Below, in pieces: positions 1-40,392 of a stretch of 64,000 nt of DNA (the stretch's first letter is position 1; each line of letters starts with the position of its first letter). Below the pieces are notes generated by a model. That model saw only the letters and a list, made by a program, of their open reading frames with translations, was not told where the DNA came from and did no database searches. The stretch lies in NCBI RefSeq assembly GCF_058153355.1, contig NZ_CM177019.1; one strand, written 5' to 3'. The translations under genes and the position numbers were made by a program.

Positions 1-9
1 CCCAACTGT

Positions 10-1669: not shown

Positions 1670-1687
1670 TCGCCTCGTTCTCACGAT

Positions 1688-1763
1688 TCCTCTGTAGTTC
1701 AGTCGGTAGAACGGCGGACTGTTAATCCGTATGTCACTGGTTCGAGTCCAGTCAGAGGAGCCA
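1688..1763 (+). tRNA. asnW: tRNA-Asn (GUU)
   Basis: 76-nt sequence TCCTCTGTAGTTCAGTCGGTAGAACGGCGGACTGTTAATCCGTATGTCACTGGTTCGAGTCCAGTCAGAGGAGCCA; symbol by synteny between yeeO and yeeN. Confidence 0.9.
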
Positions 1764-2213: not shown

Positions 2214-2930
2214 TTAGAGATTTGCGACGTTATGATAAACTTTTTGAACATCGTCGTCATCTTCAAGGGCATCAACAAGCCCTTCAAAGATTTCTAAATC
2301 TTCTGGTGAAAGCTCAACTTCAGATTGAGCGATCATTTCTAATTCTGTTGTTGAGAACTCAGTGATTCCAGCTGCTTTTAGAGCCGCGATTCCTTTATGA
2401 AGGTCAGTTGGTTCAGTATAAATAACAATGTTACCTTCTTCTTCGGTCACATCACGAACATCAACTTCAGCTTCAAGTAAAATTTCAAAAATATGGTCAG
2501 GGTCTGTACCTTTAAATACAATCACACCCGTATTGTCAAACATATAGCTGACAGAACCTGCCGCTCCGATATTGCCGCCTTTTTTATTGAAAATTGTGCG
2601 AACGTTAGCAATCGTACGGTTAACATTTGAAGTCAAGGTTTCAGCGATAATCATTGAGCCATTAGGACCAAAGCCTTCATAACGGCCCTGCACGAACGTT
2701 TCATCTCCGCCGCCTTTGGCTTTATCAATTGCTTTATCAATAACATGCTTTGGAACTTGTGCCTGCTTTGCTCGTTCAATAACGAATTTTAAAGATGTGT
2801 TTAATTCTGGATCGGGTTCACCTTGTTTGGCAGCAGCATAGATTTCTACACCGAATTTTGCATAAATTTTAGACGTCGCACCGTCTTTAGCCGTTTTTTT
2901 AGCAACAATATTGGCCCATTTACGTCCCAC
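2214..2930 (-). CDS. yeeN: YebC/PmpR-family transcriptional regulator YeeN
   Basis: 238-aa ORF starting [12 protein letters not shown], typical of the YebC family. Confidence 0.85.
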
Positions 2931-3271
2931 TGGAATGATCTCCTCGAAAATTTATTTACATTACTGGTAAATCGTTAACATGCGTTAATTCGGCATATTA
3001 TATCATAACAGGAAAAATCTCGTCTATTAGAAATAAAAATATTCTAAATCCATAATCTTATATTTAATCTCATAAAAACTAATGTTGTTGGCGGATTTTT
3101 TTATAATTGTATTTTGAAAGCATACTTGCTTTTAATATATGGAAATCATTAAGGCTATAATAAAACTCGTATCCGCCCCAGGAAGCAAACAGCCTGCTTT
3201 ATTGCAGGCTATTTGCTGGATGACTTACTAAATCCTTCACATCTATTCCTGATAAAAAGGAACAGAACTTA

Positions 3272-4726: not shown

Positions 4727-4827
4727 GTGTGTCTCCTGTTCCATACAATTACCGCACTTCCGATAGTATGTCACAGGAATGTGAAACAAAAGTGTAAGGC
4801 GAAGATCGGATGATCTTCGCCAGGCTA

Positions 4828-6144
4828 TTAAGCGCGTTGATTGTCTTTCATCAACAAAGCGGTCATTGCGGAAATCAGGCATCCAGCCAGTAAATAAATG
4901 GCGACGCTATGCCAGTTCCCGGCAAAGTAAGTGATAAGTGCAGCGGCAATGAAAGGTGTAAATCCACCGCCAACCACACTGGCAACCTGATATCCGATTC
5001 CAGCACCACTGTAGCGATAACTGGCACCAAACATTTCGGTAAACATCGGTTGTTGCACGCACACCACCATGTCATGCGCAATGTTTGCCAGCATTATGGA
5101 GAAGAAAACTATCCAGAAAATGGATTGTGCTTCAAGCGCCATAAAGAAAGGAAATGCGCTCAACGTTCCGATTAACGCACCTGTGATATAAACTCTGCGG
5201 CGACCAAAACGATCGGCAAGCCAGGCAAAACAGGGAATTGTCAGACAGCTTAGTCCACCTACCAGCAAACCAATATTGAGGAAAAGTTCGCGCGGTAACC
5301 CCATATTCTGGGTTGAATAATTAAGTGCGAAGGCGGTAACGATGTACATCGTCAGCAACTCGCACAGTCGTAGCGCAATAATCTTCAGAAAAGCACCGGG
5401 ATGTCGTAACAGTGCTTCGATAACCGGGATGCGTTTTTGCGCTGCCGCTTGATTATGTTGCTGTTGTTCAAATTCCGCGGACTCCTCCATGCCATTACGC
5501 ACCCACAATGCCCCCAGTACCAGTACGATGCTAAACAGGAAAGGAATGCGCCAGCCCCAGCTTAAAAACTGTTCGTCAGTCGTCATCATACTGATCAATG
5601 AAACCAGTCCGGTCGAAAGCAGTAAACCTACTCCGTAGCCAACTTGTACACCGCTACTGTAAAAGGCTTTTTTATTTTTCGGTGCACTTTCAACGGAAAG
5701 TAACGCCGCGCCTCCCCATTCGCCGCCGACAGCAAATCCCTGAATGGCACGCAGCGTCACCAGTAAAATGGGGGCCCACCACCCAATAGTCGAGAATGAA
5801 GGAAGAATACCAATCAAGGCTGTCGCGATACCCATCATCCAGACGGTCAGCATTAACATGCGCTTACGTCCCAGTCGGTCGCCAAAGTGACCGAAAATGA
5901 CACCGCCGAGCGGACGGAACAGGAATCCGACACCAAAGGTGGCAAATGCGGCGAGCGTTCCCATAGCCGGGCTTACTTGCGGGAAAAACTCGCGATTAAA
6001 CACCAGTGCGGCGGTAATGCCATAGAGTAAAAAATCATACCAGTCGACGACGGCACCAGCGAAACTGCCTAACGCAGCTCGTCGGGCGCGACTTAACGAA
6101 AGCGTCCCTTCATCGGGACGAGTGGAGATGAGCGTGGAGTCCAT
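4828..6144 (-). CDS. shiA: shikimate/dehydroshikimate MFS transporter
   Basis: 438-aa MFS-type ORF starting MDSTLISTRPDEGTLSLSRARR; position beside amn. Confidence 0.85.
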   Translation of the reverse strand: MDSTLISTRPDEGTLSLSRARRAALGSFAGAVVDWYDFLLYGITAALVFNREFFPQVSPAMGTLAAFATFGVGFLFRPLGGVIFGHFGDRLGRKRMLMLTVWMMGIATALIGILPSFSTIGWWAPILLVTLRAIQGFAVGGEWGGAALLSVESAPKNKKAFYSSGVQVGYGVGLLLSTGLVSLISMMTTDEQFLSWGWRIPFLFSIVLVLGALWVRNGMEESAEFEQQQHNQAAAQKRIPVIEALLRHPGAFLKIIALRLCELLTMYIVTAFALNYSTQNMGLPRELFLNIGLLVGGLSCLTIPCFAWLADRFGRRRVYITGALIGTLSAFPFFMALEAQSIFWIVFFSIMLANIAHDMVVCVQQPMFTEMFGASYRYSGAGIGYQVASVVGGGFTPFIAAALITYFAGNWHSVAIYLLAGCLISAMTALLMKDNQRA

Positions 6145-6449
6145 AATGATCCTGTTTGTACTGTCTTTTTATAATTAGTATGGAAAAGGTAACTCACATT
6201 GCCGTCGATCTATAAACGAACCTTATGAGACTACCGCGCCAGAGCGCTTCTGCAAATGATTTTATGGCTGATTAACGGCAACATGAAAAATTCGATGGAA
6301 GATGAAATCGCAGGAGTTGCATAAGGATTGAGCAGAGCACCTACAGTTTTGAGATATGAAACATAAAAGTCCGCATATGCACAAAATTGCACCCTGATGA
6401 TTCTGATAGACTGCATTGCATTATAACCAGTAGGGAGGCGAGGTTAGGT

Positions 6450-7520
6450 ATGTTTTTAGCATCATTGTTGAGACGTATTGCATTTAGTTACTACGATTAT
6501 AAAGCTAATAATTTCAATATTGAAAAAACAGAGTTTGTTGTCATCCATATTCCCGATCAGATTGGCGATGCTATGGCTATCTTTCCAGTGATTCGGGCGC
6601 TTGAATTGCATAAAATCAAGCATCTTTTAATAGTTACTTCGACAATTAATTTAGAAGTCTTTAATGCGCTCAAACTTGAACATACTAAATTAACATTAGT
6701 CACAATGACTATGCAGGATCACGCAACATTAAAAGAAATAAAAGATTTAGCGAAGAACATAACACAGCAATACGGTACGCCGGATCTTTGTATAGAGGCA
6801 ATGCGTAAAAAGAACCTGAAAACGATGTTATTTATCAGTCAGTTGAAAGCAAAAACAAATTTTCAGGTTGTTGGTTTAACCATGAAGTGCTACTCCCCTT
6901 TGTGTAAGAACGCCTCCCGGATGGATCAACATCTCCGGGCTCCCGTACCCATGACATGGGCGTTTATGATGCGTGAAGCGGGTTATCCGCCAGTCAGGCC
7001 AATATATGAATTACCATTAAGCGAGCAGGTAATAAATGAAGTACGTGAGGAATTGTGCACTTTAGGATCTTACATTGCGCTTAATTTAGATGGCAGCGTG
7101 CAGGAACGCACATTTTCGTTATCAGTAGCTGAGAAACTCATCGCCAAAATTCAAAGTGATAATGATATGCCAATAGTCATTGTTCATGGACCAAAAGGGG
7201 AAGATAAAGCCCGGAAATTAGCGGGTTGTTATAATAATGTCTACCGGCTATCCTTATCACCCTCGATTAAACGTTCAGCAGCAATCATAAAAGATGCTTA
7301 TATCGCAATAACCCCTGATACCTCAATATTACATATGGCAAGTGCCTATAATACCCCCGTCGTTGCAATTTATGCTGATTACAAAACGCGGTGGCCTGCG
7401 ATGGCAGATATCTCGGAGTCAGTGGTCGTTGGGCAAAAAATTGATCATATAAGTTTGGATGAATTCGGAAAGGCGCTAAAAAGTGCTTTGGAGAGAGTAT
7501 GTGTCAGTACTTACGTATAG
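6450..7520 (+). CDS. yeeL: glycosyltransferase family 9 (heptosyltransferase-like) protein YeeL, apparently intact
   Basis: ORF 6387-7520; start placed at internal ATG preceded by GGGAGG. Position between shiA and yeeJ. Confidence 0.6.
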   Translation: MFLASLLRRIAFSYYDYKANNFNIEKTEFVVIHIPDQIGDAMAIFPVIRALELHKIKHLLIVTSTINLEVFNALKLEHTKLTLVTMTMQDHATLKEIKDLAKNITQQYGTPDLCIEAMRKKNLKTMLFISQLKAKTNFQVVGLTMKCYSPLCKNASRMDQHLRAPVPMTWAFMMREAGYPPVRPIYELPLSEQVINEVREELCTLGSYIALNLDGSVQERTFSLSVAEKLIAKIQSDNDMPIVIVHGPKGEDKARKLAGCYNNVYRLSLSPSIKRSAAIIKDAYIAITPDTSILHMASAYNTPVVAIYADYKTRWPAMADISESVVVGQKIDHISLDEFGKALKSALERVCVSTYV

Positions 7521-7818
7521 AAGGTAATGCCGATCTATGCTGAACAGGGGACATTAATACCCTGAGGTTGGTCAATCACCACAAAAAAAGCCTTTGAATC
7601 AAAGCAATACTCACCGAATAATAAGGCAACCTGAACTTAAATCCCCGTTAACTGCCATACATTATTATGACTTGCACTGATGTAATTAGCTAAATATTAT
7701 CGTGATTTGACTAAATAGCAAAAATGATAGCTATCAAAAATAGCTCATATACTTTGTTTCCCGCTGCCGTAGAATAGATGGTCCTTCCATGTTTCAAGCA
7801 TTTATTCAAAAAAAAGGG

Positions 7819-7872
7819 GGCTCGACTGTCTTACGATAAACAGAGAGGGATTGTAAAGTCGAGTGCCCCTAA
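7819..7872 (-). terminator. Rho-independent terminator downstream of yeeJ
   Basis: GC-rich hairpin (GGGGCACTCGACT...AGTCGAGCCCC on the minus strand) followed by a T-run. Confidence 0.5.
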
Positions 7873-7899
7873 TGGAGCACTCTATAAAAAAATCAACAA

Positions 7900-15888
<7,989 letters not shown>

Positions 15889-16196
15889 GCTTACCTTCCC
15901 TGAACGAGCTAACATAAATGCGCCCTTTCTAGCACAGCGAAAAAATATAAATCCTGATAGCAATATGATTGAAAATTAATAACTTTTCGTTAAGCAGTTT
16001 TGGGTGTGAGTTGCAAGAGGGGAGACTACTGAATAACTCAAGTTTTATAATCGAGGGGAAAATGGTGATGGTGTCCATAGCAAAACGCCCTCAACCATAA
16101 AGATCGAGGGCGCTTAAGATGTCAAAAACCCGCTATCCGTTAAAAAGCAATGCTCAACTAAGGTCAGTGACATTGCGCTAAAAAGCGAATTTTTAG

Positions 16197-16216
16197 AATT
16201 TGGCTCCTCTGACTGG
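16197..16216. repeat. island boundary direct repeat (duplicate of tRNA-Asn 3' end, AATTTGGCTCCTCTGACTGG)
   Basis: Identical 20-mer recurs at 33537-33556, overlapping the 3' end of the minus-strand tRNA-Asn. Confidence 0.75.
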
Positions 16217-16367
16217 GATCGCCGTAGCCATTAACTGGCTGATTGGTAAGCTAAACCTAAAAGTTGGGGTTGTCAAGACCACCAGAATGACCACCTCTTT
16301 ACTTTGAAACTAACGACATATTTTACGCTCATCCCTCAGTCAATCGTAAGCTAATAAACAACACCAA

Positions 16368-16748
16368 CTACGGTGCTGGTATTATAGTCTCTGCTCCAAA
16401 CCAATTTCCAAGTGTTGTCAGTGCCGCAGGTGACAAAGCTTGGGTGAAAAGGATCGCAAGGCGCTTTTGGGGTCTGGAACAAGCGACGTAAAACAAATTT
16501 CGGTTTCGTTCAAATGAGTCTTGCTTATCGACTGGAATCGTTTGGGCTCCAGCGAATTCCAACATTTCTCCGAAGTTATACTGGTTCCACCCACGCCCAA
16601 CAACAACCAGGACATTCTCAAATTCAGCACCTTTCACACCATGTTTAGTTTCGAATGGAGAATATCCATCAAGATAACGGCGAAGTGATCTGACCTCCGA
16701 ATAGGGAATATTTTTCAGCTTTTCAAGTTCTTTTAATCTTCGGGGCAT
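16368..16748 (-). CDS. UvrD/PcrA-like SF1 helicase, C-terminal segment
   Basis: Carries helicase motif V/VI-like sequences (KGAEFENVLVV, YVACSRPQKRL); same reading frame as 16794-18122, separated by a single TAA. Confidence 0.6.
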   Translation of the reverse strand: MPRRLKELEKLKNIPYSEVRSLRRYLDGYSPFETKHGVKGAEFENVLVVVGRGWNQYNFGEMLEFAGAQTIPVDKQDSFERNRNLFYVACSRPQKRLAILFTQALSPAALTTLGNWFGAETIIPAP

Positions 16749-16793
16749 TTCAACATCAGCCGTTCTGTCAAAATGGAGTAACTCCTGCTCAAA

Positions 16794-18122
16794 TTATTCA
16801 ACCTTATCTGGAAGTCTTGGCTTCCGTTGAGCACGGATGAACTCAATTACGTCGCCAATTGTACCAGTTTCGCGGAGAGCAAGAAGTTGCGTCATTACAT
16901 TGTGCCAACTCACCTTATCTGAATGTCTACGCAACAGTGGTGTAATACCGCCAAGCGCATTAAACATCTCTCCATACTTACGAGCGGTAAAGGCATCACA
17001 GGCGGGTTCCAGTTTGTCTACAAAAAAGGCTATATGTTCATGTTCCTTTTTCGTGAAGGATTCATTGTATTTAAACGCTGCCACTATATTTGAATAGCCC
17101 TGCTGATTGGCTAAAAGTCGATGGGTCAACATGAGAATTTTGGTGTGATTGGGAGAAAAGTCCCAACCATCCTGCTCCAACGTTGTTTTAACTCGTTCCA
17201 GAGTAGCCTGGCCTTCACATAATGGTAAATCACCACTCCAGTGCACGCCTTTTTGACGAACTCCTTGCCAATTGTTTGTATGGAAAACGCGTACTAAACC
17301 TGTAGCTTCGGGATCTTTAACACACTGCGGTAGCTCAGGTCTCATACGATTAAGGGCATCAACAATTATCTTGTCCGAACGAAAATTGGCTTCTTTACCT
17401 ATTTCAACCACGTCCTGATGTTCCAGCTTTCCACATCCACCACCATAGATTTTTTGCCAATGGTCGCCGAAAAAACCAAATAAAGGTGCTCTAGCTTGTC
17501 CAAGAAAATGCCGTTTAATTGCCTCAATCCAGTTTTTATCAGTGTCCTGGTACTCATCGACCAGAATGATTGGAAAGCGTTCTGCAATCACTCTACGGAA
17601 TTTTTCGTGCTCCATGAGTGAGACAGTTAAAGAAAGAACATCGTCATGATGAAGAGTTATACGATGGTCGCGAATAGAGCGATGTCCAAGATTATACTCA
17701 ACACTACGATTCCCAAGGCTTCCACCAACTTCTTCGAGCTTTTCTGTCCATGTTGGCATTGTCTCAATCAGTTCTCTCAACGGTTTTTGAAAGCTGCTTA
17801 TTAACGACCAACAGAACGCATGATTGGTATCACAAAAAACGATGGGGCTTCGATCTGTTCGCGCGACGATTTCATCCTTCGCCACGTTAGTAAAGGTGAT
17901 GCAGGCAATTTGCTGGCTACGTTTTTCAAATAAATCCTTATTTCGCTCAATCAAGAATCGAAGTGCCTTAATAAGGGAATACGTTTTACCCGCACCAGCG
18001 CCAGCTTCCAGCCGGAAGCTTCGTCCTTCACTGAGGCAAGCATACATAGATTCCAAAGCTCGCTGGCTAGCAGCTTCGGCGGGCGAATGGATCTCAGACA
18101 TCAGCGCTGGCTCCTTCTTCAA
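16794..18122 (-). CDS. UvrD/PcrA-like SF1 helicase, N-terminal segment
   Basis: Walker A GAGAGKTY, motif II ILVDEYQDT, motif III-like FFGDHWQKIY; start overlaps the upstream OLD-family gene by 29 nt. Confidence 0.7.
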   Translation of the reverse strand: MKKEPALMSEIHSPAEAASQRALESMYACLSEGRSFRLEAGAGAGKTYSLIKALRFLIERNKDLFEKRSQQIACITFTNVAKDEIVARTDRSPIVFCDTNHAFCWSLISSFQKPLRELIETMPTWTEKLEEVGGSLGNRSVEYNLGHRSIRDHRITLHHDDVLSLTVSLMEHEKFRRVIAERFPIILVDEYQDTDKNWIEAIKRHFLGQARAPLFGFFGDHWQKIYGGGCGKLEHQDVVEIGKEANFRSDKIIVDALNRMRPELPQCVKDPEATGLVRVFHTNNWQGVRQKGVHWSGDLPLCEGQATLERVKTTLEQDGWDFSPNHTKILMLTHRLLANQQGYSNIVAAFKYNESFTKKEHEHIAFFVDKLEPACDAFTARKYGEMFNALGGITPLLRRHSDKVSWHNVMTQLLALRETGTIGDVIEFIRAQRKPRLPDKVE

Positions 18123-20166
18123 TACTAGTTGTGGCTTCTACAACTTGCGCCAATACTGGATCTTGTGTCATAAGCTCATTGCTGCCAGCTAACCAGCGGA
18201 TTCCATCGACTATGTATTTGGGGGCGTTCCATTCTGTCTCTGTAATCGCGTATTTCAATGCAAATTCTGATTTTTTCCACTCAGACGCTTTATCACGGGC
18301 TTCTATTTCCAGTTCCTGAGAATTTCTCCCTACCAGCCCGAATAAAGCCGAATTTGCAAGGATAAATGCATCTTCGAATGTGCGTCCGCAGGGGCCATCT
18401 GTCACTTCTGCACATTGATAGGCAATACGATTTCCATTACGAGCTTTATCATCGTCACTCCTGGCAATCAAACCAGCTAATGTGAAAGGGGTATCTTCAG
18501 AGAACCATGCTTTCAAACAAGCATTACTGGAATATGTACCAAGATGAACAGCACATGCCTGACCTCCTGCTCTTTGGACTGCGTCCAGATCTGTTATGAT
18601 CAGACTCTGAAGCTCAAGAAACGCTAATAACTCGAAGAACAAATGAGCGTAAGCACCGCCGACTTCCATCACCGTTGCGTACTGGCTCGACAGCTTCGGT
18701 CTCTCTGGTTCGGCTGATTCTAGTTTTTTGATGATGACGGGAAGCAATAATCGCTCGCTTAACCCCTCGACGAGAATCGCTTTATCTGCGAAAAACAGAT
18801 CACAACGTGTCAACGTCATGTATTGATGAAGGAATTTTTTATCTTCAATTAGAATATGATTCAGCCCTTTACGCAGATCTTTAATTTTGGTTTTTCGGAC
18901 ACCTTCCTGAGTCCCCTGTGCTGGAGCCCCCAGAAAATAGCGAATACTCTCGAAACCAGCCGCATTGGCAATGTGAGACGAGTGTGTAGACACGACAAAT
19001 TGTACAGGCCAGGGTCTCCTGTCCTCAGTGCCATCCACCAGTTGTTGTGCAATTTTGGCAAGTTGACGAATAAAAACCTCCTGCATTTGTGGATGCAGAT
19101 GGGCTTCTGGTTCTTCAATGAATATCAGGTGTACACCCGGCTCAGTAACTTCAGCACAAAATGCTTTATAGAAACCAGCTAATTGCAAGAGAATAAATAT
19201 CAGATTACGTGTACCAAGACCGTTATATGACTCCGGTAATGCGATTCCGCTATAACCTGAATAGCGAACTTTCGTGAAGTTTGATAGCAACTTGCTAACA
19301 TCGAGCAATGTTTCAGTATGTAACTCCTGTCCTCCCAATCCTGGGTATCCAAAAGTTTCTAGAGCCGGAATCAGACTGTTGAGCTGGTTTCCGAAGTTTG
19401 TGTCAATTTGAGTCTGAATGTCCTGAACTGCACCTTTCAATGCATCAGCAATTTGTTTATCAGCAGCTCCCGCAGATGCCGAAGAGGCTGTTGCGAAAAG
19501 ATTTTCAACCGTTTTAGCCAGTACATCGGATTCTCGGGACGTCACATCATCAAGTCCTCGCTGAGCGTTGATAAAGCCCGATTTGACCAGACCGCGCAAT
19601 GCACTAGGTGGTAACTCGCGACGATTATCAGGATCGTTGGGATCTTCAGCCCATATTTTCACACAGAAATTATTAGGGATACGTTCTCGCAATATACGGA
19701 GGAAAGCGAGGCGGTCTTCTCTAGAAAGTGGCATTTCAGTCTGACTTTCGAGAAATTGTGTCAGATGGCCATCTTTCAATTCGTATCGGACTACTACCTG
19801 CGCTTCAGAACACGCGGGATCCAAATCGATAACAAAGGGACTCAATGGACCTAATTGAGGTTGTGCAGGGTCGTACTGGAATTTCAGTCGAAGTTCAATG
19901 GCGGGAATAAGTTCTCGAACGAGATGATCTTCCATGCCTTCCTTAAGTGCTTCCAGAACATCACAAAAACGGTCGTAGCAGGAACTGGAAAAGTCTTCAA
20001 GTTGGAAAGTAGCACTACCATCTGCTAAGAATCTGCGTATTATTTCTGAGAGTGATGTTTTTCCGCTGTTGTTTCGTCCAACAATGACGGTCGTCTGTTC
20101 CTCCAATACAAGCTCTGCATCAGCTAAAAGACGGAAGTTTTTAATTTCGACCTGATGAATGTGCAT
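18094..20166 (-). CDS. OLD-family ATP-dependent endonuclease (ABC ATPase plus TOPRIM), GajA-like
   Basis: 690 aa; Walker A GRNNSGKTS, Walker B/D-loop LIFIEEPEAHLHP, H-loop STHSSH, TOPRIM-like AILVEGLSE and ITDLD. Confidence 0.7.
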   Translation of the reverse strand: MHIHQVEIKNFRLLADAELVLEEQTTVIVGRNNSGKTSLSEIIRRFLADGSATFQLEDFSSSCYDRFCDVLEALKEGMEDHLVRELIPAIELRLKFQYDPAQPQLGPLSPFVIDLDPACSEAQVVVRYELKDGHLTQFLESQTEMPLSREDRLAFLRILRERIPNNFCVKIWAEDPNDPDNRRELPPSALRGLVKSGFINAQRGLDDVTSRESDVLAKTVENLFATASSASAGAADKQIADALKGAVQDIQTQIDTNFGNQLNSLIPALETFGYPGLGGQELHTETLLDVSKLLSNFTKVRYSGYSGIALPESYNGLGTRNLIFILLQLAGFYKAFCAEVTEPGVHLIFIEEPEAHLHPQMQEVFIRQLAKIAQQLVDGTEDRRPWPVQFVVSTHSSHIANAAGFESIRYFLGAPAQGTQEGVRKTKIKDLRKGLNHILIEDKKFLHQYMTLTRCDLFFADKAILVEGLSERLLLPVIIKKLESAEPERPKLSSQYATVMEVGGAYAHLFFELLAFLELQSLIITDLDAVQRAGGQACAVHLGTYSSNACLKAWFSEDTPFTLAGLIARSDDDKARNGNRIAYQCAEVTDGPCGRTFEDAFILANSALFGLVGRNSQELEIEARDKASEWKKSEFALKYAITETEWNAPKYIVDGIRWLAGSNELMTQDPVLAQVVEATTSIEEGASADV

Positions 20167-20303
20167 ATGTCCCTCATGATCTATTTATAGTCTATCGATA
20201 AATCTGATGTTATTGCTCTACCTGTAATTTTCATTCTTACGATTGTTTTGCAATGCAAAATATACCTCAGGCCATATTTATTCCTGAGGTATGTTTTGGT
20301 ATC

Positions 20304-21824
20304 TCACTCGGTCAAAGAGGCCTCACGAACATCATCCGGTTGAGGTTGGCACTCTTTCCATCGTCGAATAAGCGTTGCTACACAGGGATTACCCGCCAGT
20401 TGATTCATTCTGACCCAGTCAACATCCACTAATCCAGCCAGAAGTTCAGGATTTAGTTCCCCTTGTAATGGGTGCCACTGGCGAATACTGGGCTGGCGCT
20501 GAATTTGAGGTTGAAGGGGAGCCAAACTCCCGACGATAACGTAATTTTGTTCTGGATCATGCCAGAGTCGTGTAATGCCAGGTATGTTTTTCAACCAGTT
20601 TCGAGGATCACCTAAAGGTAAATCAAAAACACGAGAGAGTAATTTATTCCATGACGCTATTAATGACGAACTGGCTTTCTTTGCCAATTTTTTCTCACCT
20701 GCCAGGAGTGCATTTTTTCTTTCTGGCCATTTGGAAAAAATATAACTTTTTAAAATATCGTAGGTAACATTAAGTTCATTATTGTAATAATACTCACGCA
20801 AAGCACAATTCCACAACTCGCACAGCAAGTCTAGTTCACGCATGAGTGTATTTTTATTGGTATCTGATAATTCACCTTCCTCATTAAGTTGCGCTATATA
20901 AAAAGACAGTATCTTTGTATCTGGTAAGAGCCAGTGGTTTAGTGAGAACTGCTGACTTTGAGTATCAAGAACAGTCATTAATGCATCTAAATTCTCAGGG
21001 ATCATATTAGGGGTGTCGTATTTCGGATCCTGAAGAAGAATGGATATTTCTTCCATTCTATGAATAATTATTGTCAATCTCTGAGCAAATCTGGTTAATT
21101 TATCTTCACTGCTGCCAAAACCTTGCGCTATTGATTCAGGCCGATAAGTATAAGGCCATTTTTTATTTAAGAGAGTAAGAAGAGCCTCGACAGAGGTATC
21201 AAACAGTTTCAGCCTTTCATCGCAGGCTTTAACTAAATCCGGGCAAGAAGGATTAAAAGGTAAAATTACTGGGCGGTCTTGTTCAGCGGTGAATAAATAT
21301 CCTTCGGTGATAACCAATAGGTCATGAGTCAGTAAGTCTTTCTGTTCTGTCAGGCTTGTACTGATTCTTGTTTCTTTGCAAAGTAAAAGATGCTTCAACG
21401 CAAGTTCTTTGTACGCAACTTCGGTATTACGCGCCAATGCATCAAGACAGGTCTTTTTCTCAAGATCTTGAATGGCATAGTCGTAATAGCAAGAATCTAT
21501 CGCAGGGATGAGTCGGGTAGTCCCATCGGGAGTATCCTGCTCAATCAATAAATTATCAACAACAGAATCACCACTAAGATCAAACGGATTAACGTTGATA
21601 TGCTGGCACGCAATTTTAGTTCTTAGATTCTGAGTTAACGGATAGCGGTCATCAATTATACCACGGATCTGATCTAACAAAACAAGTATGCATATAGAGC
21701 TGTCTTTTTCCAATTTTTCAAATGATGAGGGTTCTGAATCCGGTAATAATTCCAGCTGTACATCAGGATACTTTTTGTTCAACACCTTTTGTATCTGCGC
21801 ACTTCCCCGTGAAACCCGGGTCAT
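20304..21824 (-). CDS. hypothetical protein, no recognisable motif; 5' end lies in IS66-derived sequence
   Basis: Long ORF (track 20304-22004); only in-frame Met codons are inside the IS66 tnpC remnant, so the native N-terminus is probably lost. Confidence 0.4.
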
Positions 21825-22843
21825 CCAACCGGAAGAAGAATGCTGCCCGGCCTGTGGTGGCGGGCTCAGTCCTCTGGGATGTGATGTGTCAGAACAACTG
21901 GAGCTTATCAGCAGCGCCTTTAAGGTTATCGAAACACAACGTCCGAAACTGGCCTGTTGCCGGTGCGACCATATCGTGCAGGCTCCGGTGCCTTCAAAAC
22001 CCATTGCACGCAGTTATGCCGGAGCGGGGCTTCTGGCCCATGTTGTCGCTGGAAAATATGCAGACCATCTGCCGTTATACCGCCAGTCAGAAATATACCG
22101 TCGTCAGGGCGTGGAGCTGAGCCGTGCCACACTGGGGCGCTGGACAGGTGCTGTTGCTGAACTGCTGGAACCGCTGTATGACATCCTGCGCCAGTATGTG
22201 CTGATGCCCGGTAAAGTCCATGCCGATGATATCCCCGTTCCGGTCCAGGAGCCGGGCAGCGGTAAAACAAGGACTGCCCGGCTGTGGGTCTACGTTCGTG
22301 ATGACCGTAACGCCGGTTCGGAAATGCCTCCGGCGGTCTGGTTCGCGTACAGCCCGGACCGGAAAGGTATCCATCCACAGAATCATCTGGCCGGTTACAG
22401 CGGAGTGCTTCAGGCCGATGCTTACGGTGGTTACCGGGCGTTGTACGAATCCGGCAGAATAACGGAAGCCGCATGTATGGCTCATGCCCGGAGAAAAATC
22501 CACGATGTGCATGCAAGAGTGCCCACCGACATCACCACGGAAGCCCTGCAGCGTATCGGTGAACTGTATGCCATCGAGGCAGAGGTCCGGGGCTGTTCAG
22601 CAGAACAGCGTCTGGCGGCAAGAAAAGCCAGAGCCGCGCCACTGATGCAGTCACTGTATGACTGGATACAGCAACAGATGAAAACACTGTCGCGTCACTC
22701 GGACACGGCAAAAGCGTTCGCATACCTGCTGAAACAGTGGGATGCACTGAACGTGTACTGCAGTAATGGCTGGGTGGAAATCGACAACAACATCGCAGAG
22801 AACGCCTTACGGGGAGTGGCCGTAGGCCGGAAAAACTGGCTCT

Positions 22844-24667
22844 GTGTGTCACGAAGGAGTACTTATGGCAACAATGTGAAAATTGCAGCATAAGTTATCC
22901 ATGCTCTGAGGTGGGTGGAGGTGGGCCCTCCGGTCAGGGTTTACAGGAGCACTGACCAAACGACCCGGTGCTGCTTCATTCTAAGGAATGAGGTGGTGAG
23001 CGACTCGGGAAAAGGCAGAGATCTACTGTCACGTGGGGTTCGGGAAGCTGAACGAAAGTAAACTGTCCGATGAAGCATCGAAATCTTAGATGATGTCAAA
23101 ATGGGGCCGTACAGCCGTCCCCTGATAAGCGCAGAAGACACCTGCTTACTGACTGCGCGGCATCCGGTGTGAAGGCAGCAGGATCCCGGGCCAGACCATC
23201 TCAGGGAACGTGAGAACCTGTTTCCGGCACGTATCGGGAAACAGGGGCGGACCCATTCGTAGTAGTGATGAAAGATCTGTAATGGGTCTGGAGCGAAGGG
23301 ATGGGGATCACATTCATTGCAGAAGACACAACCCAAAAGGGGATGACGTAACTGATGCAACGAAAATCATTTGAAATACCAAAAGCACTGGTCTGGGCAT
23401 CATATCTGGATGTGCGTCGCAACAAGGGAGCCCCCGGATGCGACGGGCAGACTTTGAAAATGTTCGACCAGCAACGTGATGGCAATCTATACAAGATCTG
23501 GAACCGGCTATGTTCGGGAACATGGTTTCCGCCACCAGTGCTGGAAAAACGGATCCCGAAGTCGAATGGCAAGGAACGCATTCTGGGGATCCCAACAGTA
23601 TCCGATCGAATTGCTCAGGGAGCGATAAAACTTTTCATGGAAGAAAAGCTTGACCCGATTTTCCATGCTGATTCATATGGTTACCGACCAGGCAAATCAG
23701 CTCATGACGCTCTGAAACAATGTGCCATCCGGTGCTGGCGTTATAGCTGGATACTGGAAGTGGACATCAGTGCGTTTTTCGACCATGTGAGACATGATCT
23801 GGTGCTCAAAGCTCTGGAACACCACGGGATGCCTAAATGGGTCATCCTGTACTGTCGACGCTGGATGGAAGCGCCAATGCAGAGTTGTGAAAATGGAGAA
23901 TTAATAACCCGAACACGAGGCACTCCGCAGGGCGGGGTCATTAGTCCACTACTTGCTAACTTGTTCCTTCACTATGCATTTGATTTGTGGATGGAAAGAG
24001 AATATCGGGGGGTACCGTTTGAGAGGTACGCTGACGATATTGTAGTACATTGTTCACGAATGAGTGATGCAACAAGGCTGAAGAACAGGTTATCGGAGCG
24101 CTTCTCGGAAGTCGGGCTGGTCCTGAATGCAGGGAAAACGAATATCGCCTACATTGACACGTTTAAAAGGAGAAACGTCGCAACGAGTTTCACCTTTCTC
24201 GGATATGACTTCAAAGTGCGTACGCTGAAGAATTTCAAAGGCGAACTGTACCGAAAATGCATGCCGGGTGCGTCAAATGCAGCAATGCGCAAAATAACAG
24301 AAACAATCAAGAAGTGGCGTATACATCGCTCAACAGCTGAGAGTTTGCTGGATTTTGCGAGGCGCTACAATGCGATAGTGAGAGGCTGGATCGAGTACTA
24401 CGGAAAGTTCTGGTCCAGAAATTTCAACTATCGACTGTGGAGTGCAATGCAGTCACGTCTGCTCAAGTGGATGCAGTCTAAATACAGACTTTCGAACCGG
24501 AAGGCTCAGCGAAAGCTGACGCTGGTAAGGAAGGAGTATCCGAAGCTATTTGTTCACTGGTATTTACTACGTGCATCAAATGAGTGATCAAGAGCCGTAT
24601 GACGCGAGAGTGTCACGTACGGTTCCGTGAGCAGCCGGGGAGTGAAATTCTCTCCGGCTGACTCGAC
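22844..24667 (+). mobile_element. group II intron (~1.8 kb) with intron-encoded reverse transcriptase
   Basis: 5' GTGTG start; domain V-like GAGCCGTATGACGCGAGAGTGTCACGTACGGTTC near 3' end; joining the flanks restores the TnpC frame (KNWL-FAGSDSGG). Confidence 0.7.
23355..24587 (+). CDS. group II intron reverse transcriptase/maturase
   Basis: 410 aa with RT motifs including YADD and a C-terminal maturase-like region. Confidence 0.8.
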   Translation: MQRKSFEIPKALVWASYLDVRRNKGAPGCDGQTLKMFDQQRDGNLYKIWNRLCSGTWFPPPVLEKRIPKSNGKERILGIPTVSDRIAQGAIKLFMEEKLDPIFHADSYGYRPGKSAHDALKQCAIRCWRYSWILEVDISAFFDHVRHDLVLKALEHHGMPKWVILYCRRWMEAPMQSCENGELITRTRGTPQGGVISPLLANLFLHYAFDLWMEREYRGVPFERYADDIVVHCSRMSDATRLKNRLSERFSEVGLVLNAGKTNIAYIDTFKRRNVATSFTFLGYDFKVRTLKNFKGELYRKCMPGASNAAMRKITETIKKWRIHRSTAESLLDFARRYNAIVRGWIEYYGKFWSRNFNYRLWSAMQSRLLKWMQSKYRLSNRKAQRKLTLVRKEYPKLFVHWYLLRASNE

Positions 24668-24852
24668 TCGCAGGTTCCGACAGCGGTGGCGAACATGCGG
24701 CGGTGTTGTACTCGCTGATCGGCACATGCCGTCTGAACAATGTGGGGCCAGAAAAATGGCTGCGTTACGTCATTGAGCATATCCAGGACTGGCCGGCAAA
24801 CCGGGTACGCGATCTGTTGCCCTGGAAAGTTGATCTGAGCTCTCAGTAAATA

Positions 24853-26796
24853 TCAATACGGTTCTGGCGAGCCGCTTACGTTTAATCGGGAAATCTCATA
24901 TTTTCGGTTCATCATTAATGGCAGAAGGAAGCGTTGATGCTGTTGACGAGAAATTTCACCAGCACGGAGCAGTTTTTCTAGGTTGCGTAACTGGAAACCC
25001 GCATGCGCCATATCATCATTGTTCTCTGTATTGGCCTGAAAAGCGGAAAAGTAATAATGCCGTGATTCCAGCAAATATAAACAGGTCAGATCCATATTTT
25101 TGCCAGATTCAGGCAGGCTGAAATCCAGATTCACACCATTCGTCGCAGAGGCGGTCTGAGTCAGCACAATGACAATACGCCGGGAGGCAAATGCGGCCTG
25201 ATAAGCATCACTAAAGCCCTTTTTCTTCTGACATTCTGCGGTTAACAGACAAATCAGCGCAGGCTCATTATGTATGCTCACTGGGATAAACACATCAGCA
25301 AAATTTTTTAGTAGAGGATCATCAGATAAAGGTTGTTCCATTTTTAACCATGCGAGGTATTCTCTACTTTGTGTTGCTATTGTAGTGGTAAGCCATTTTC
25401 TTAAATAGGCTATGGAATTCACGAAAGCAAGATGCCCCCGGTGTTGAGGTCTTTTTCCCGCAAGATCCAATACATTAAGCAATTTTAGCAGTATATTTTT
25501 TCGATATTCTGATTCGAAATCTGATGAGGGGTCATCGCCATTCTGGAAAAAATCGGGGGCTAGCGAAGCGAGCAGATCAACACAATGCGGGTTATTCTTT
25601 ATGCTATTGAAATCTTGAATCTCAGCATTCAGTTGTGTGTTTCTGATATTTTCTTTGCTGTTATTGATCTCTTCAATAGCTAAATACTGCAACTGGAAAT
25701 CATCAGCCGTCTGGACATAAGGTATCGGTTCTTTAAACCACTCGACAGGTCGTTTTTCAAAAGTTGTTCCCAGAAAACTTTGTGTAACAGCAGGGTTGCG
25801 TGCTTCTGCAATATAACGAAGAGCTGAATTAATCCACCGGACATCGAAGTGATTACAGGCTCTTTCAATATATGACGTAGCCGACAGTGCAAAGACAAGA
25901 TTACGACTGGCGAGAGAAAGCAGCAGACCTTCTGCCGTCGTGGGCAGAAAGGCACGTTTGATCTGTATCCGTAACGGATCGATATCCGTATCTGAGACAT
26001 TCTGTTTCAGCAACCAATTGGTCAAGCCAAAAATACTGGCATGAGTATTTGGCAAAATATTACTTTTCCTTAATTCCCGTAGTTCCGGCAGGTCAGTACG
26101 CGGTAACAAAAATCGGGACATATTGGGCAGGGTTGAGCCGTAGTATGAAGGCCTGTAATCATTAACGGGGTCGAACAGAAGTCGGGTTAACTTTTTAATG
26201 TATTCATACGCTTCATCTTCACTTGCAGTCAGGTCGGTCAACATTAGGCTAAACTGTCGAATGAATTTTTCCATCAAGCGTAAAAAATCACTGATGTCGA
26301 TAGTCTGATCGCTATCCTGAAGCGGAGAGTCTGGCCTGATAATTTCGTATCCATGTTCCGCTTTCCGCATAATAAGCCGTTCACTGGTCACCAGTTGATC
26401 GGAACGGAATAAATAATGCTCACCAAAGGGTTTATTATCCAGATATTGCTGAAGAGGAATAACCAGCGATCTGGCATGTGTTAAATCAGCATGTTTTTCT
26501 GTTAATGCACTATCCAGATCATTAATAAATTTTTCTAGACGTTCACGGATCATAGGTGCAGGTTCCATTTCAACATACTGCATACGTTGTAGTAATCTGC
26601 GTCCCCCGTCGAGCAACTGACCCAGACACTCAGGTGGTTCCTGAACCCATTGCGCCTGTGCCAGATACTCTTGTAATACCTCAGACTGGTAATCAAATTC
26701 ATCGATGAAAATGATGTAATTACGCAGCTCTTTGCTGGACATTTTTACTTTGCGACGCCCATCGTAAAACGATGAAACCATCTTTTGAGTCGTCAT
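24853..26796 (-). CDS. hypothetical large protein, downstream part of a split P-loop NTPase; Walker-B-like IIFIDEFD near N-terminus
   Basis: 647-aa ORF; stop codon lies inside the IS66 terminal repeat; starts 2 nt after the stop of 26799-27572 in another frame. Confidence 0.45.
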   Translation of the reverse strand: MTTQKMVSSFYDGRRKVKMSSKELRNYIIFIDEFDYQSEVLQEYLAQAQWVQEPPECLGQLLDGGRRLLQRMQYVEMEPAPMIRERLEKFINDLDSALTEKHADLTHARSLVIPLQQYLDNKPFGEHYLFRSDQLVTSERLIMRKAEHGYEIIRPDSPLQDSDQTIDISDFLRLMEKFIRQFSLMLTDLTASEDEAYEYIKKLTRLLFDPVNDYRPSYYGSTLPNMSRFLLPRTDLPELRELRKSNILPNTHASIFGLTNWLLKQNVSDTDIDPLRIQIKRAFLPTTAEGLLLSLASRNLVFALSATSYIERACNHFDVRWINSALRYIAEARNPAVTQSFLGTTFEKRPVEWFKEPIPYVQTADDFQLQYLAIEEINNSKENIRNTQLNAEIQDFNSIKNNPHCVDLLASLAPDFFQNGDDPSSDFESEYRKNILLKLLNVLDLAGKRPQHRGHLAFVNSIAYLRKWLTTTIATQSREYLAWLKMEQPLSDDPLLKNFADVFIPVSIHNEPALICLLTAECQKKKGFSDAYQAAFASRRIVIVLTQTASATNGVNLDFSLPESGKNMDLTCLYLLESRHYYFSAFQANTENNDDMAHAGFQLRNLEKLLRAGEISRQQHQRFLLPLMMNRKYEISRLNVSGSPEPY

Positions 26797-26798
26797 GA

Positions 26799-27572
26799 TC
26801 AGCAGGTGTTGCTTTTCGTCACGCCAGGCAATGGCGGGCAGAATGCGCCTGACCCAGACGTGGCGACGGAAATCTGCAACTCGTTGCCTGGCTTGGCTGC
26901 CTGCGTGAGTTCATGTTCTTCGCCATATTTTTCTTTTTGTTTCTTGGCTTCTTTTTCCAGCAATTTGATATTCTGAATCAGAGTTATCTCCACCGCTGCG
27001 CATGATTTGATTAATGACTCTTTCTCACTGGCGATGGCCGTCTGAAAACGCGTCGGATATCCTTTCAGCGATTTGTTAATATGCAGTATGTTTTTGCAAT
27101 TTCTACGCAATTTGTCGGCGATATCCTGAATGGCAAACAAATTTCTGTCTTCCAGGATATTGATGGAGTCAAATGGATCGGGAAGTGAGTCTGCGGAAAT
27201 ATTATTCTCATGAGGCAAGGGGGTGGCCTCGATGGCAGAAACGATCTGTTCATCTTGTGCATAGAGCACGCTGACGGTGAATGGTTCCCCGTTACTGTCT
27301 TTATGCGCTGCCGTTTTCTCATAAATGTCGTGCAAAATATTCCAGCGATGGGTAACCAGAATGGCTTGAGAGCCTGATTTTTTTATCGTCTCCAGCGCCG
27401 GGAGAGCGTTATCGGCATAGCCAGAGCGGTAGAGTGAGCTGGTTTTTCCGCTACCCGTAGGCCCCTGAAGCTGACAAAATCCTGCGATACGACGGGATGT
27501 TTTGGATTTTTTTGCCTGAGAAAGGGTGTATTCAATAACGGCATTGTAGGAACGTATTAAAGGGGCACTCAC
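26799..27572 (-). CDS. P-loop NTPase N-terminal segment (Walker A GPTGSGKTS)
   Basis: 257-aa ORF with Walker A near residue 40; low-complexity C-terminal tail suggests a frameshift into the next ORF. Confidence 0.45.
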   Translation of the reverse strand: MSAPLIRSYNAVIEYTLSQAKKSKTSRRIAGFCQLQGPTGSGKTSSLYRSGYADNALPALETIKKSGSQAILVTHRWNILHDIYEKTAAHKDSNGEPFTVSVLYAQDEQIVSAIEATPLPHENNISADSLPDPFDSINILEDRNLFAIQDIADKLRRNCKNILHINKSLKGYPTRFQTAIASEKESLIKSCAAVEITLIQNIKLLEKEAKKQKEKYGEEHELTQAAKPGNELQISVATSGSGAFCPPLPGVTKSNTC

Positions 27573-27885
27573 ATTTCACCTCATCCGTGTCAGGTTATCG
27601 AAGAGTAGAATTTCAGCAAATTCATGTTACACCGAACGGGTATCATTTCAATGTTTAATAATAATTTCCCCTTATAAAACAACGCTTATAATACATTCGC
27701 AGGTCAGATGATTTATCGGTGTGTTATTTGTTTGAATTTGGTGTTGTGGTTTTCTTTTTTTAACAATCTTCGATCTTCCTTCCACGACTTCCCCTTGCCG
27801 TTTTCAACCGAAAGCGGTATCTTTCACTTGCACCTGCAAAATCAGGTGCCGGGATTGGAACCCCGAAATGTAACCATACTGGCGA

Positions 27886-27910
27886 CACGTGACGCGTCTG
27901 CGTCTTTTTT
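27886..27910 (+). terminator. hairpin plus T-run (GACGCGTCTGCGTC-TTTTTTT)
   Basis: Short GC stem followed by seven T on the plus strand. Confidence 0.35.
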
Positions 27911-28075
27911 TATGTCGCGCGCTTAGCTACACCAAAATTATGGTGGGCTGGGCGGGGGCACCGTAAGGTGCGCCGGTTCCAGTATGGCCGGTAGTTCCAA
28001 CCTCGTTCAGTCCACCACCCATGAGATTGGAACCTCTGGTGGTGGTTTTCAAACCACATACTGGAGGCTGCCTTT

Positions 28076-30250: not shown

Positions 30251-30535
30251 GCTGGAGTCTGACACCGCCTTTTCAGGCCATTTACCTATAAGGAGAACAT
30301 GAATCGATACCGAGGCGGATCCGGACGATCCGGGGGATAACCCGCGCAAGCGGGCGGCTGCTCAGAGAGCACAACCGAAGCCCCACCACACCTCAACGGC
30401 TGCCGCCCCGGCGCTCAGGTATCGTTCGCAGCCCCGACAAAAAAACAGGGGCTATCGGCCTGTGCGCCGGGGAAAGCTGTATCAGTGTTGGTTTTTTGGG
30501 GGATGAGTTTGCGGCAATCATGAAAAGGGGAATGT

Positions 30536-31423
30536 ATGGGGATACTGGAGCAGGAAATGACGCGACTGGCGCAGCAGGCGGGTGGCAGCTACAAAACTGT
30601 GGATGACCGCATCAGGCTGGCGCAGCGGTTTTGTGAGCGTCTGGTTCTGGCGCAGAACGTACAAATCCGCCGGGTGGAGCAGCTTAAGGCGCGGCATATT
30701 GAAGGCTATGTTCGTGAACGGCTGGCGCAGGGCATCACAAAGCGTTCCCTGCAAAATGAGATGGCGGCGGTGCGCTGCATTCTGAAACAGGCCGGGCGTG
30801 ACAGGCTGGCGCAGAGTGAGCGGCTGAATAACCGCTCGCTGGGATTGTCCGGAGCATCCCGTAACGGGACGAAGCTGGCTATTACACTGGAGCACTATCG
30901 TGATGTGCTGGAGACCGCCCGCGTAAAAGATCCGGGGCTGGCGGCAGCGCTGGAGCTCTCAAGGTTGATGGGATTACGTTCGCAGGAGGCGGTGCAGAGT
31001 GTACAGTCGCTGAAAACGTGGATACAGGCGCTGGAGCGTGGTGAGTCCCGGTTAACCGTGGTGTTCGGCACCAAAGGCGGACGGCCCCGCGAGACGATTA
31101 TTCTTGATGCTGGCGTAGTTAAAAAAGCGCTGGATAATGCGCTGGTGGTGGCTGAGGATCGTCACGGCAGGCTGATAGATAAGCCCGATCTGAGAAGCGC
31201 GATGAAATACTGGCACAGCCAGGCGTCGGGTCTTGGTTTAACTGGCGCATATTCCCCGCACTCGTTGCGCTATGCCTGGGCGCAGGATGCTATTCGTCAT
31301 TATCTGGCGCAGGGATTTTGTGAGAAGGAAGCGCTGGCGATGACGGCGATGGATTTGGGTCACGGCGACGGGCGCGGGCGGTATGTGGCGCAGGTTTACG
31401 GGCGAAAGGGGGATGCTGATTGA
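30536..31423 (+). CDS. small tyrosine recombinase/integrase-family protein
   Basis: 295 aa; C-terminal HSLRYAWAQ box and candidate nucleophile in GRGRYVAQVYG; LAQ-rich N-terminal domain. Confidence 0.5.
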   Translation: MGILEQEMTRLAQQAGGSYKTVDDRIRLAQRFCERLVLAQNVQIRRVEQLKARHIEGYVRERLAQGITKRSLQNEMAAVRCILKQAGRDRLAQSERLNNRSLGLSGASRNGTKLAITLEHYRDVLETARVKDPGLAAALELSRLMGLRSQEAVQSVQSLKTWIQALERGESRLTVVFGTKGGRPRETIILDAGVVKKALDNALVVAEDRHGRLIDKPDLRSAMKYWHSQASGLGLTGAYSPHSLRYAWAQDAIRHYLAQGFCEKEALAMTAMDLGHGDGRGRYVAQVYGRKGDAD

Positions 31424-33540: not shown

Positions 33541-33616
33541 TGGCTCCTCTGACTGGACTCGAACCAGTGACATACGGATTAACAGTCCGCCGTTCTACCG
33601 ACTGAACTACAGAGGA
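33541..33616 (-). tRNA. asnT: tRNA-Asn (GUU), island integration target
   Basis: Exact reverse complement of the 76-nt tRNA-Asn at 1688-1763; symbol by synteny with yeeJ and mtfA. Confidence 0.9.
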
Positions 33617-34607: not shown

Positions 34608-34697
34608 GGAGAGATGCCGGAGCGGCTGAACGGACCGGTCTCGAAAACCGGAGTGGGGGCAACTCCACCGGGGGTTCAAATCCCCCTCTCTCCGCCA
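34608..34697 (+). tRNA. serU: tRNA-Ser (CGA)
   Basis: 90-nt GGAGAGATGCCGGAGCGGCTGAACGGACCGGTCTCGAAAACCGG...TCTCCGCCA with long variable arm and CGA anticodon. Confidence 0.85.
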
Positions 34698-39545: not shown

Positions 39546-40392
39546 GATGGCAGCCTCGATAGTCAGTTTAAATAACTCACCACCAGAGGTAGCAATCTCA
39601 TGGGTGGTGAGACGCACAGGGTTGCTACAACCGGTGACTACCGAAACCGGCCAGCCTTGCGGCTGCCCTGCACGCCCCACCATAATCTGAATGTGGCTGT
39701 GCTTGACGCATAAAAAAACCGCCTGAGCGCGGTTATGCGCAGTAGTCATCGTCGGGGTAGCAATCCCGGCACCCGTTTTATGAGGTGCAGGTGCACTATA
39801 ATTCCACCCGTTCTGGTTTTCAATAGCTACATTCAACATTTTCTCTTTCCTTTCATCACCGAAGTGAACTTTGTTGATGCGGTGCCTGGTGCCTCCAGGT
39901 GACGTTAACCAGTTAACAATTAACGCCGGAATAAGGGATTTTCCTTACTGTTTTAACTGTTCCGCGTGCGCTGAGCCGCATTCACCGCATCACAAAATTC
40001 ACTTTAAAAAGGGCGGACATCAGCCAGCAATTAAACCGATGCCGCCAAAGGTAATCAACATGGGTTGTTGCAGCGGGGTTGTCGCTCAGGCGTATGGTCA
40101 ACCTGACAACCCGGTGGACATTTGCGAGGAACGGAGAACCCCCGCCATACTTACCGCCGCGCCATTTCGCGGATTGCCACAACCGGAAGCGCACGGTCGA
40201 AGAAAATTTAACGACAGGCTATCTATGAACCAGCAACCTCGCCGTGCGCTTTCGCGTTATGCTCTGACTTTTCAGGGAAATATCCTTTCAGTAAACTGTC
40301 AGTGCCGGATACTCACCCGTGTCCGGCGCACCTACTCCACCTTACCCGTGGAGAACTCCTTAATTACCAACCTTAGCTTCGTTGGTTAGCTA

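Follow-up and report, generated by a model that had tools for sequence, protein, structure and literature searches.

The locus analyzed here lies in a defense island on contig NZ_CM177019.1 of assembly GCF_058153355.1, within a 64,000-nt stretch of DNA (the window) to which all coordinates refer. At its center is a group II intron of 1824 nt (22844-24667, plus strand), which interrupts the transposase gene tnpC of an IS66-family insertion sequence (IS) resembling IS679 and ISCro1. What is left of this IS, 3,080 bp including the intron (21800-24879, plus strand), is flanked by fragments of two minus-strand host genes: on the left, the 3' fragment of an Argonaute-like gene that resembles DdmE/ApsB (20304-21799) and, on the right, the 5' fragment of a helicase-nuclease gene that resembles DdmD/ApsA (24880-27572). 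The starting point of the analysis was an earlier annotation made from the letters of this DNA, here called the sequence-only reading, which had described three layers of nesting at 21799-24880, namely, a group II intron in a 5'-truncated IS66 tnpC inside a host operon of a candidate defense locus. The span that we obtained differs from that one by at most one base at each end.

A group II intron in a truncated IS66 transposase gene

The interrupting element is a genuine group II intron, combining ribozyme domains with a reverse transcriptase (RT)/maturase equivalog in sense orientation within tnpC. Comparison with the Rfam covariance models, a check proposed in the sequence-only reading, was run on the whole window and on the segment 22600-25000, and gave two matches. 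Part of domain I was found at 22917-23033 (plus strand; RF01999, group-II-D1D4-2, 91.9 bits at a gathering threshold of 36, E 2.2e-17), with model positions 1-118 fully covered, and domains V and VI at 24590-24667 (RF00029, 57.1 bits at a gathering threshold of 40, E 1.4e-8). The suspected domain V-like element corresponds to a 34-nt domain V at 24592-24625 (plus strand), in which the AGC triad, a GAGA tetraloop and a 2-nt bulge are evident from the RF00029 match and the local fold. Domain VI (24628-24665, plus strand) contains, in both the RF00029 alignment and the fold, a bulged branch-point A at 24661, the seventh base counted from the 3' end of the intron, and the last 93 nt, which comprise domains V and VI, yielded a fold z of -5.5 relative to shuffled sequences.

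The intron ends that had been read from the letters as GTGTG...AC were located precisely: the 5' boundary GUGUG occupies 22844-22848, and the 3' boundary ...CGAC ends with base 24667 (GUGUG...GAC overall). The upstream exon remnant (21802-22843, plus strand) begins near codon 116 of the 523 in tnpC and encodes LPRETRV...GRKNWL, whereas exon 2 (24668-24849, plus strand) encodes FAGSDSGGE...SSQ and ends with a stop codon at 24847-24849. When 22843 is joined to 24668, giving the exon-exon sequence CTGGCTCT followed directly by TCGCAGG, the reading frame stays open, with ...GRKNWL leading into FAGSDSGGE...SSQ and the stop (the translation 3' of the junction also reads FAGSDSGGEHAAVLYSLIGT). The restoration of the TnpC frame, likewise claimed before, is borne out at both the nucleotide and the protein level. 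The 1256 nt of spliced exons align without gaps, at 95.9% identity, to an uninterrupted ISCro1-like IS66 (positions 2566-3821 of L005, one of the loci fetched for comparison, which are numbered with the prefix L), and the 407-aa spliced product matches the IS66 family transposase model NF033517 at 463.6 bits (cut-off 180) over profile positions 16-386 of 387. A search for empty-site IS66 copies, which had also been recommended, used a 321-nt probe spanning the junction and found the site contiguous in 1,683 E. coli genomes (2,448 records). Empty sites are therefore plentiful, and the called junction is exact.

Between domain I and domain V, the intron encodes an intact 410-aa protein (23355-24587, plus strand) that contains the YADD motif and matches TIGR04416, the group II intron reverse transcriptase/maturase model, at 393.9 bits (cut-off 300) over positions 2-352 of 353. 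The presence of domains V and VI and the membership of the RT in an intron class are the two points on which the sequence-only reading had said that the identification would stand or fall. In Pfam, the protein matches only RVT_1 (residues 67-285) and GIIM (311-385); no HNH match indicative of an endonuclease (D/En) domain was found there, and the protein stops 25 aa past GIIM. An identical RT sequence is present on 11 public contigs, and most of the contigs that carry the RT are shorter than 2 kb.

The position of this gene in a defense hotspot, adjoining Gabija and a DdmDE-like pair, could invite the reading that it is a defense-associated RT of the DRT, retron or Abi type rather than an intron protein, and it does show weak partial matches to Drt3a (77 bits), the retron St85 RT (68 bits) and Drt2 (54 bits). 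These scores fall far under their cut-offs of 200-390 bits (200-600 for the defense RT models overall), whereas that for TIGR04416 exceeds its own; moreover, the protein has the GIIM maturase domain, ribozyme domains lie on either side of the open reading frame (ORF), excision of the intron gives back the exact tnpC, and the same intron, identified below as E.c.I3, is also found in unrelated plasmid and island settings. We assign a negligible probability to a defense RT, an identity dropped on the comparison of at most 77 bits for the DRT and retron models with 393.9 bits for the intron class. Accounting for this RT gene as debris guards against its annotation as a component of the defense island.

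The IS itself is heavily reduced. Its sequence begins at 21800, at about codon 116 of tnpC, in agreement with the 5' truncation originally described, and its right terminal sequence (24860-24879, plus strand; ...GAGCCGCTTAC, reverse complement GTAAGCGGCTCGCCAGAACC, starting GTAAGCG...) is common to L002, L004 and L005, with host DNA resuming at 24880. Overall, the remnant is 97.3% identical to the IS66::intron element of E. coli 536 and 96.9% identical to that of MEI3O-23. The left end and the genes tnpA and tnpB are gone, as are 346 nt from the start of tnpC; the loss amounts to at least 1.36 kb, a lower bound derived from the gene layout. This left part is not present elsewhere in the window, and an inverted-repeat search of L004 and L005 located no left inverted repeat. 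Among the hallmarks of the IS66 family, the TnpC DDE transposase is present, whereas the tnpA-tnpB-tnpC order, the two terminal inverted repeats and the 8-bp target duplication are not. Because only the right terminus and the 3' part of tnpC are left, we treat this element as a remnant and not as an IS66 member: it is like IS679, ISCro1 and ISEc8 in its TnpC core and its GTAAGCG... terminus, but has been reduced to its 3' 1,256 nt. Islands and plasmids of E. coli often carry decaying pieces of IS and intron of this sort.

Identity of the intron and signs of recent homing

Comparison with the known E. coli group II introns, also suggested at the outset, points to E.c.I3. The boundaries of the window intron coincide base for base with those of E.c.I3-2b of E. 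coli 536 (NC_008253 4007952-4009775), which served as the anchor for this identification. In 1824 nt, 19 substitutions and no indels separate the two copies (98.96% identity), whose RTs differ at three amino acids. This is above the nucleotide identity of more than 90% by which E.c.I3 is named (PMC3522654; Leclercq & Cordaux 2012), at an equal length of 1824 nt. The segment 22844-24667 is thus a named intron at its own homing site, with both its kind and its name already known. In the same survey, E.c.I3 is assigned to class D (Table S2), with IS679 as its target, and is reported as a single copy in pathogenicity island I (PAI I) of E. coli 536, as a fragment on an E24377A plasmid, and as a 1789-bp fragment "lacking 37 bp" on Shigella virulence plasmids, the fragments on E24377A and Shigella plasmids being named E.c.I3-tr1 and E.c.I3-tr2; elsewhere, it is listed with the IIB introns (PMC8283771, Table 1). 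An RT/maturase without the D/En domain is a feature of class D (IIB3), and the window copy has it.

Matches to the intron occur in 168 of 5,426 complete E. coli genomes, covering at least 80% of its length in 55 of them. Plasmids account for 182 of the 233 matching places in these genomes, and truncated IS66::E.c.I3 fragments are frequent on plasmids; in addition, 126 Shigella plasmids match intron nt 37-1824 at 99.6-99.7%. This pattern is the one given for E.c.I3 in PMC3522654. The insertion point is the same in 536, MEI3O-23 and several plasmids, and every examined copy lying in this IS66 group has the homing site ...AACTGGCT[C/G]T followed, across the insertion point, by TCGC.... No second homing site was found elsewhere in the window. 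The window copy accordingly shares its length, ends and tnpC insertion point with E.c.I3 of 536, but is unlike the catalogued copies in its location in a chromosomal defense island, in an IS copy cut at a private breakpoint, and in having an exon-binding site 1 (EBS1) ACAGCC that faces GGCUCU.

Two further E.c.I3 copies, on a Logan contig (L019, ERR10505424) and on plasmid p2 of E. coli E02 (L013), are identical to the window intron at 1795-1818 of 1824 positions and lie between very different exons. The exons of L019 are ~34-46% diverged from those of the window, whereas L013 has an unrelated exon 2 and an exon 1 that ends with TTGGCTTT. These copies hint at a target range of E.c.I3 that may be wider than IS679 and extend to other IS66-family members or to ectopic sites.

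Introns that home into insertion sequences, E.c.I3 in IS679-type tnpC among them, have been catalogued since the early 2000s, and the prototype of the class D (IIB3) introns with this behavior is RmInt1 of Sinorhizobium meliloti. By description, E.c.I3 and RmInt1 are alike in encoding an endonuclease-less RT/maturase of ~410-420 aa, in having a IIB-like ribozyme and in using an IS as the natural homing site; they are different intron species, and their targets belong to different IS families. E.c.I4, another group II intron of E. coli and Shigella, likewise inserts into transposase genes and forms intron-in-IS tandems, but belongs to class A, is ~2.27 kb long and targets the IS3 family (IS629, IS911) (PMC3522654).

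Target recognition was considered through the pairing of EBS1 with its partner in the exon, intron-binding site 1 (IBS1). The candidate IBS1 (GGCUCU; 22838-22843, plus strand) comprises the six 3'-terminal nucleotides of the 5' exon, and the candidate EBS1 (ACAGCC; 23111-23116, plus strand) lies in a hairpin loop of domain I, at intron nt 268-273. In 536, MEI3O-23 and L014, EBS1 AGAGCC pairs perfectly with IBS1 GGCUCU; in L003, L011, L012, L017 and L022, EBS1 ACAGCC pairs perfectly with IBS1 GGCUGU. Between copies, G or C at intron nt 269 thus goes with C or G at exon position -2, and this compensatory double change supports the assignment of the two sites. The window combines the EBS1 of the second group with the IBS1 of the first, so that 5 of 6 pairs form around a C.C mismatch at -2, and the duplex energy is -4.8 kcal/mol, compared with -8.5 for a perfect pair. 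The same arrangement was seen in L023, a 1.9-kb Logan contig (SRR31441161), and single EBS1-IBS1 mismatches also occur in L013 and L015. For exon positions -7 to -14, no convincing complement was found within domain I. The minimum-free-energy fold of domains I-III was too unreliable to position EBS2/IBS2.

The most telling comparison is with L017, a metagenome contig in which the intron adjoins a SPATE autotransporter gene. The two introns are identical (0 differences in 1824 nt), whereas exon 1 differs at 29 of 1044 positions, with differences reaching up to position -2 (2.8%; Fisher p = 1.5e-13). The presence of the same intron in diverged IS copies implies separate, recent homing events. 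The intron would accordingly have entered the window IS copy by a recent homing event of its own, with one EBS1-IBS1 mismatch tolerated, and this variant of E.c.I3 appears to have been active recently, the L017 comparison being the best support short of an experiment. An identical intron between diverged exons is clean sequence evidence for very recent mobility of E.c.I3, and homing despite the mismatch, if true, would make its target rule looser than assumed.

Disruption of a DdmDE/ApsAB-like gene pair

The island without the IS is intact in E. coli LF82 (L001) and ~20 other genomes, which have 2,173 bp of host DNA where the remnant sits in the window. Window positions 16190-21803 correspond to 2191-7805 of L001, and 24879-27864 to 9979-12959, so that the 3,080-bp remnant has taken the place of the 3' portion of one gene together with the 5' portion of its neighbor. 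Of the three layers of nesting proposed in the sequence-only reading, that of the intron in the IS remnant holds, whereas simple nesting of the remnant in a host operon does not, because the remnant replaces host DNA. The location in a candidate defense locus can be both upheld and refined: the remnant does lie between the remains of defense genes, and the genes struck are a DdmDE/ApsAB-like pair, not Gabija.

In LF82, the intact pair (L001 6305-12667) encodes proteins of 1300 aa and 818 aa and constitutes the first two of four minus-strand genes, the other two being those of Gabija. The window retains residues 1-896 of the larger protein and residues 321-818 of the smaller one (98.4% identity to LF82 by tblastn). 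Neither of the LF82 proteins had a match in PADLOC v2, NCBIfam or Pfam, so that the destroyed pair escapes all three, and a literature search did not find the accessions WP_001275764.1 and WP_000982354.1. Both proteins have matching families (~70 clusters) spread across Enterobacterales, Vibrio, Alteromonas, cyanobacteria and a spirochaete, all annotated as "hypothetical", and in Rheinheimera, a cyanobacterium and Spirochaeta the two genes are adjacent without Gabija. The profile of the large protein matched the DdmD structure in PDB (9ix4_A; E 1.5e-8), with the match spanning the DExx and SAT motifs, and its invariant motifs are GxTGxGK, DE(FD), SAT, QQxxGRxER and a C-terminal D..DAK typical of a PD-(D/E)xK nuclease. 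An AlphaFold (AF2) model of the 818-aa protein (pLDDT 84.6, pTM 0.81) retrieved, as its top six PDB matches in Foldseek, DdmE chains (E 1.8e-18 to 5.5e-11; target-normalized TM 0.52-0.61), with PIWI/Argonaute proteins next.

The modeled structure and the shared motifs indicate that the module is a divergent member of the DdmDE/ApsAB family, composed of a helicase-nuclease and an Argonaute-like protein, with a presumptive antiplasmid role by analogy. Like DdmDE of Vibrio cholerae and Lactobacillus casei and ApsAB of E. coli ST38 (PMC11096173), it is a two-gene operon in which the first gene encodes an ~1300-aa superfamily 2 (SF2) helicase with a C-terminal PD-(D/E)xK domain and the second an Argonaute-like protein of ~820 aa; it differs in having ~12% identity to DdmE and, in the window, in being inactivated. 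Antiplasmid activity has been shown experimentally for the V. cholerae DdmDE and E. coli ApsAB variants only, and ApsAB-type systems occur in several E. coli islands, including "many partially deleted systems" (PMC11096173), to which the window would add one more naturally inactivated allele.

Three-way comparison of the window, LF82 and the IS places the junction between the DdmE-like gene and the interior of tnpC at 21796-21803, at a (T)CACT microhomology; the host sequence at the proposed insertion site of IS66 is GTTTAATC. In the scenario that we propose, IS66 would have inserted in antisense orientation after codon 896 of the DdmD-like gene, at the site marked by the right end of the IS. 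A later illegitimate deletion, 3.5 kb or more in length, would have extended from the interior of tnpC into the DdmE-like gene and eliminated 2,173 bp of host DNA along with the left end of the IS, tnpA, tnpB and 346 nt of tnpC. The 34-mer spanning the junction, CACCTTTTGTATCTGCGCACTTCCCCGTGAAACC, was absent from the 5,426 complete E. coli genomes, the GTDB species representatives and the JGI metagenomes, which argues that the deletion is private to this lineage. Inversion or translocation was also considered in place of deletion and rejected; the lost IS and host segments do not reappear at any other place in the window.

The absence of the junction 34-mer from all the searched collections would also be expected if the host-IS junction at 21799/21800 were an assembly artifact, a chimeric join via repeated IS sequence. 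Short-read assemblies break at multi-copy repeats such as IS66 and E.c.I3, as the short contigs on which the RT is mostly found may illustrate. We consider such an artifact very improbable, given that the left junction lies inside tnpC and not at a repeat boundary, that the host flanks are collinear with LF82 in an order and orientation that fit a simple deletion, and that two more independent inactivating lesions in the locus fit real decay.

It is also improbable that an already truncated IS66::intron fragment, for example, from a virulence plasmid, recombined into the chromosome and swapped out the host segment in one step. The 182 plasmid-borne places, the frequency of truncated IS66::E.c.I3 fragments among plasmid sequences and the SPATE autotransporter gene next to the identical intron of L017 would all accord with such an origin. 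However, the IS has kept its right terminus intact, and this borders directly on host DNA exactly as after normal transposition; the truncation point at 21800 occurs in none of the fetched copies; and microhomology is limited to 4-5 nt at the left junction and is absent from the right one.

We hold with high confidence that the window contains a full-length E.c.I3 of class D in the tnpC of an IS679/ISCro1-like remnant that was shaped by IS insertion and subsequent deletion. Several points weigh against this account. The identity of E.c.I3 is anchored on the 536 and Shigella copies named in PMC3522654 and not on a Zimmerly-database reference, and its class D placement is taken from Table S2 of that study, with IIB from PMC8283771. 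The EBS1-IBS1 pairing in the window includes the C.C mismatch at -2, and a complementarity search of intron nt 1-520 for EBS2/IBS2 gave only weak, ambiguous candidates; neither this pair nor EBS3 could be assigned. The deletion is backed by this one assembly only and possibly by L023, a contig of 1.9 kb with the same 30 nt of exon 1, and, the left IS end being gone, the 8-bp target duplication cannot be checked.

As it now stands, the IS would be immobile because only one end is left and the accessory genes are gone. The DdmD-like gene carries, in addition, a 5-nt insertion (duplication-like AGCCA) near 26892 (~26885-26895) that shifts the frame at about codon 226, a lesion independent of the IS-associated deletion, and the host module would be dead. 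The intron retains every feature that was examined with a result and appears structurally competent, judging by its sequence. It is antisense to the host operon, and the upstream tnpA-B-C promoter region is lost; a scan of the plus strand upstream of the intron, which is a weak test, detected no sigma-70-like promoter. With its promoter lost and host transcription running antisense to it, this copy is probably silent, and the locus most likely holds a silent, structurally intact intron. In itself, the finding is ordinary mobile-DNA debris and matters little.

Two puzzling ORFs that cross the deletion junction are explained as part of the same debris. The ORF at 21688-22893 (plus strand) starts in antisense host DNA and continues into tnpC, and that at 20304-22004 (minus strand) starts in antisense tnpC and continues into the DdmE-like fragment. 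Both chimeras are likely annotation traps and not genes.

A more far-reaching scenario would take the predominance of IS66::E.c.I3 on plasmids at face value: the element would have jumped from an incoming plasmid into the antiplasmid operon, with the knock-out selected because the plasmid could then persist. The knock-out is the whole basis of this scenario, which we regard as unlikely; if true, it would represent a natural case of plasmid cargo disarming antiplasmid immunity.

The neighboring Gabija genes and the rest of the island

To the left of the broken pair, the minus strand carries a Gabija system, in which gajA (18094-20166) is intact and gajB (16368-18101) has a nonsense codon at 16794-16796, codon 436 of 577. 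PADLOC recognizes the LF82 orthologs, which are 98.7-98.8% identical to the window genes, as GajA (ATPase/OLD nuclease, 963 bits) and GajB (UvrD-like helicase, 885 bits). The neighboring Gabija system is probably dead too, and the whole locus is decaying. In LF82, an ISEc1 insertion separates the DdmD-like gene from the isrK/C4 region (L001 12960-14248), whereas the corresponding point of the window (~27864) is free of it; the two islands have thus decayed independently.

Farther along the island, the isrK and C4 antisense RNA pair occurs twice and in opposite orientations, at 27830-28022 (plus strand) and 39600-39788 (minus strand), which suggests two P4-like or island modules placed head to head. 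Downstream of the regulatory RNAs of the island, the segment 28920-29684 (plus strand) carries genes for an AbrB/MazE-like antitoxin and a PemK/MazF-like toxin, as annotated in the homologous stretch of LF82, and a strong match to the EFASI RNA (119 bits; 30299-30428, plus strand) immediately precedes an ORF of 295 aa (30536-31423). Two tRNA-Asn genes with equal Rfam scores, at 1688-1763 (plus strand) and 33541-33616 (minus strand), are inverted relative to each other; the defense island adjoins the second of them, near which there is also a tRNA-Ser(CGA) gene (34608-34697, plus strand). The island is ~99% identical to those of LF82 and EC28. For the core chromosomal flank (1-16200, yeeO-amn-shiA), identity to most complete E. 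coli genomes is only 90-95% and reaches 98.2% in the best match; by this measure, the host would belong to a divergent Escherichia lineage.

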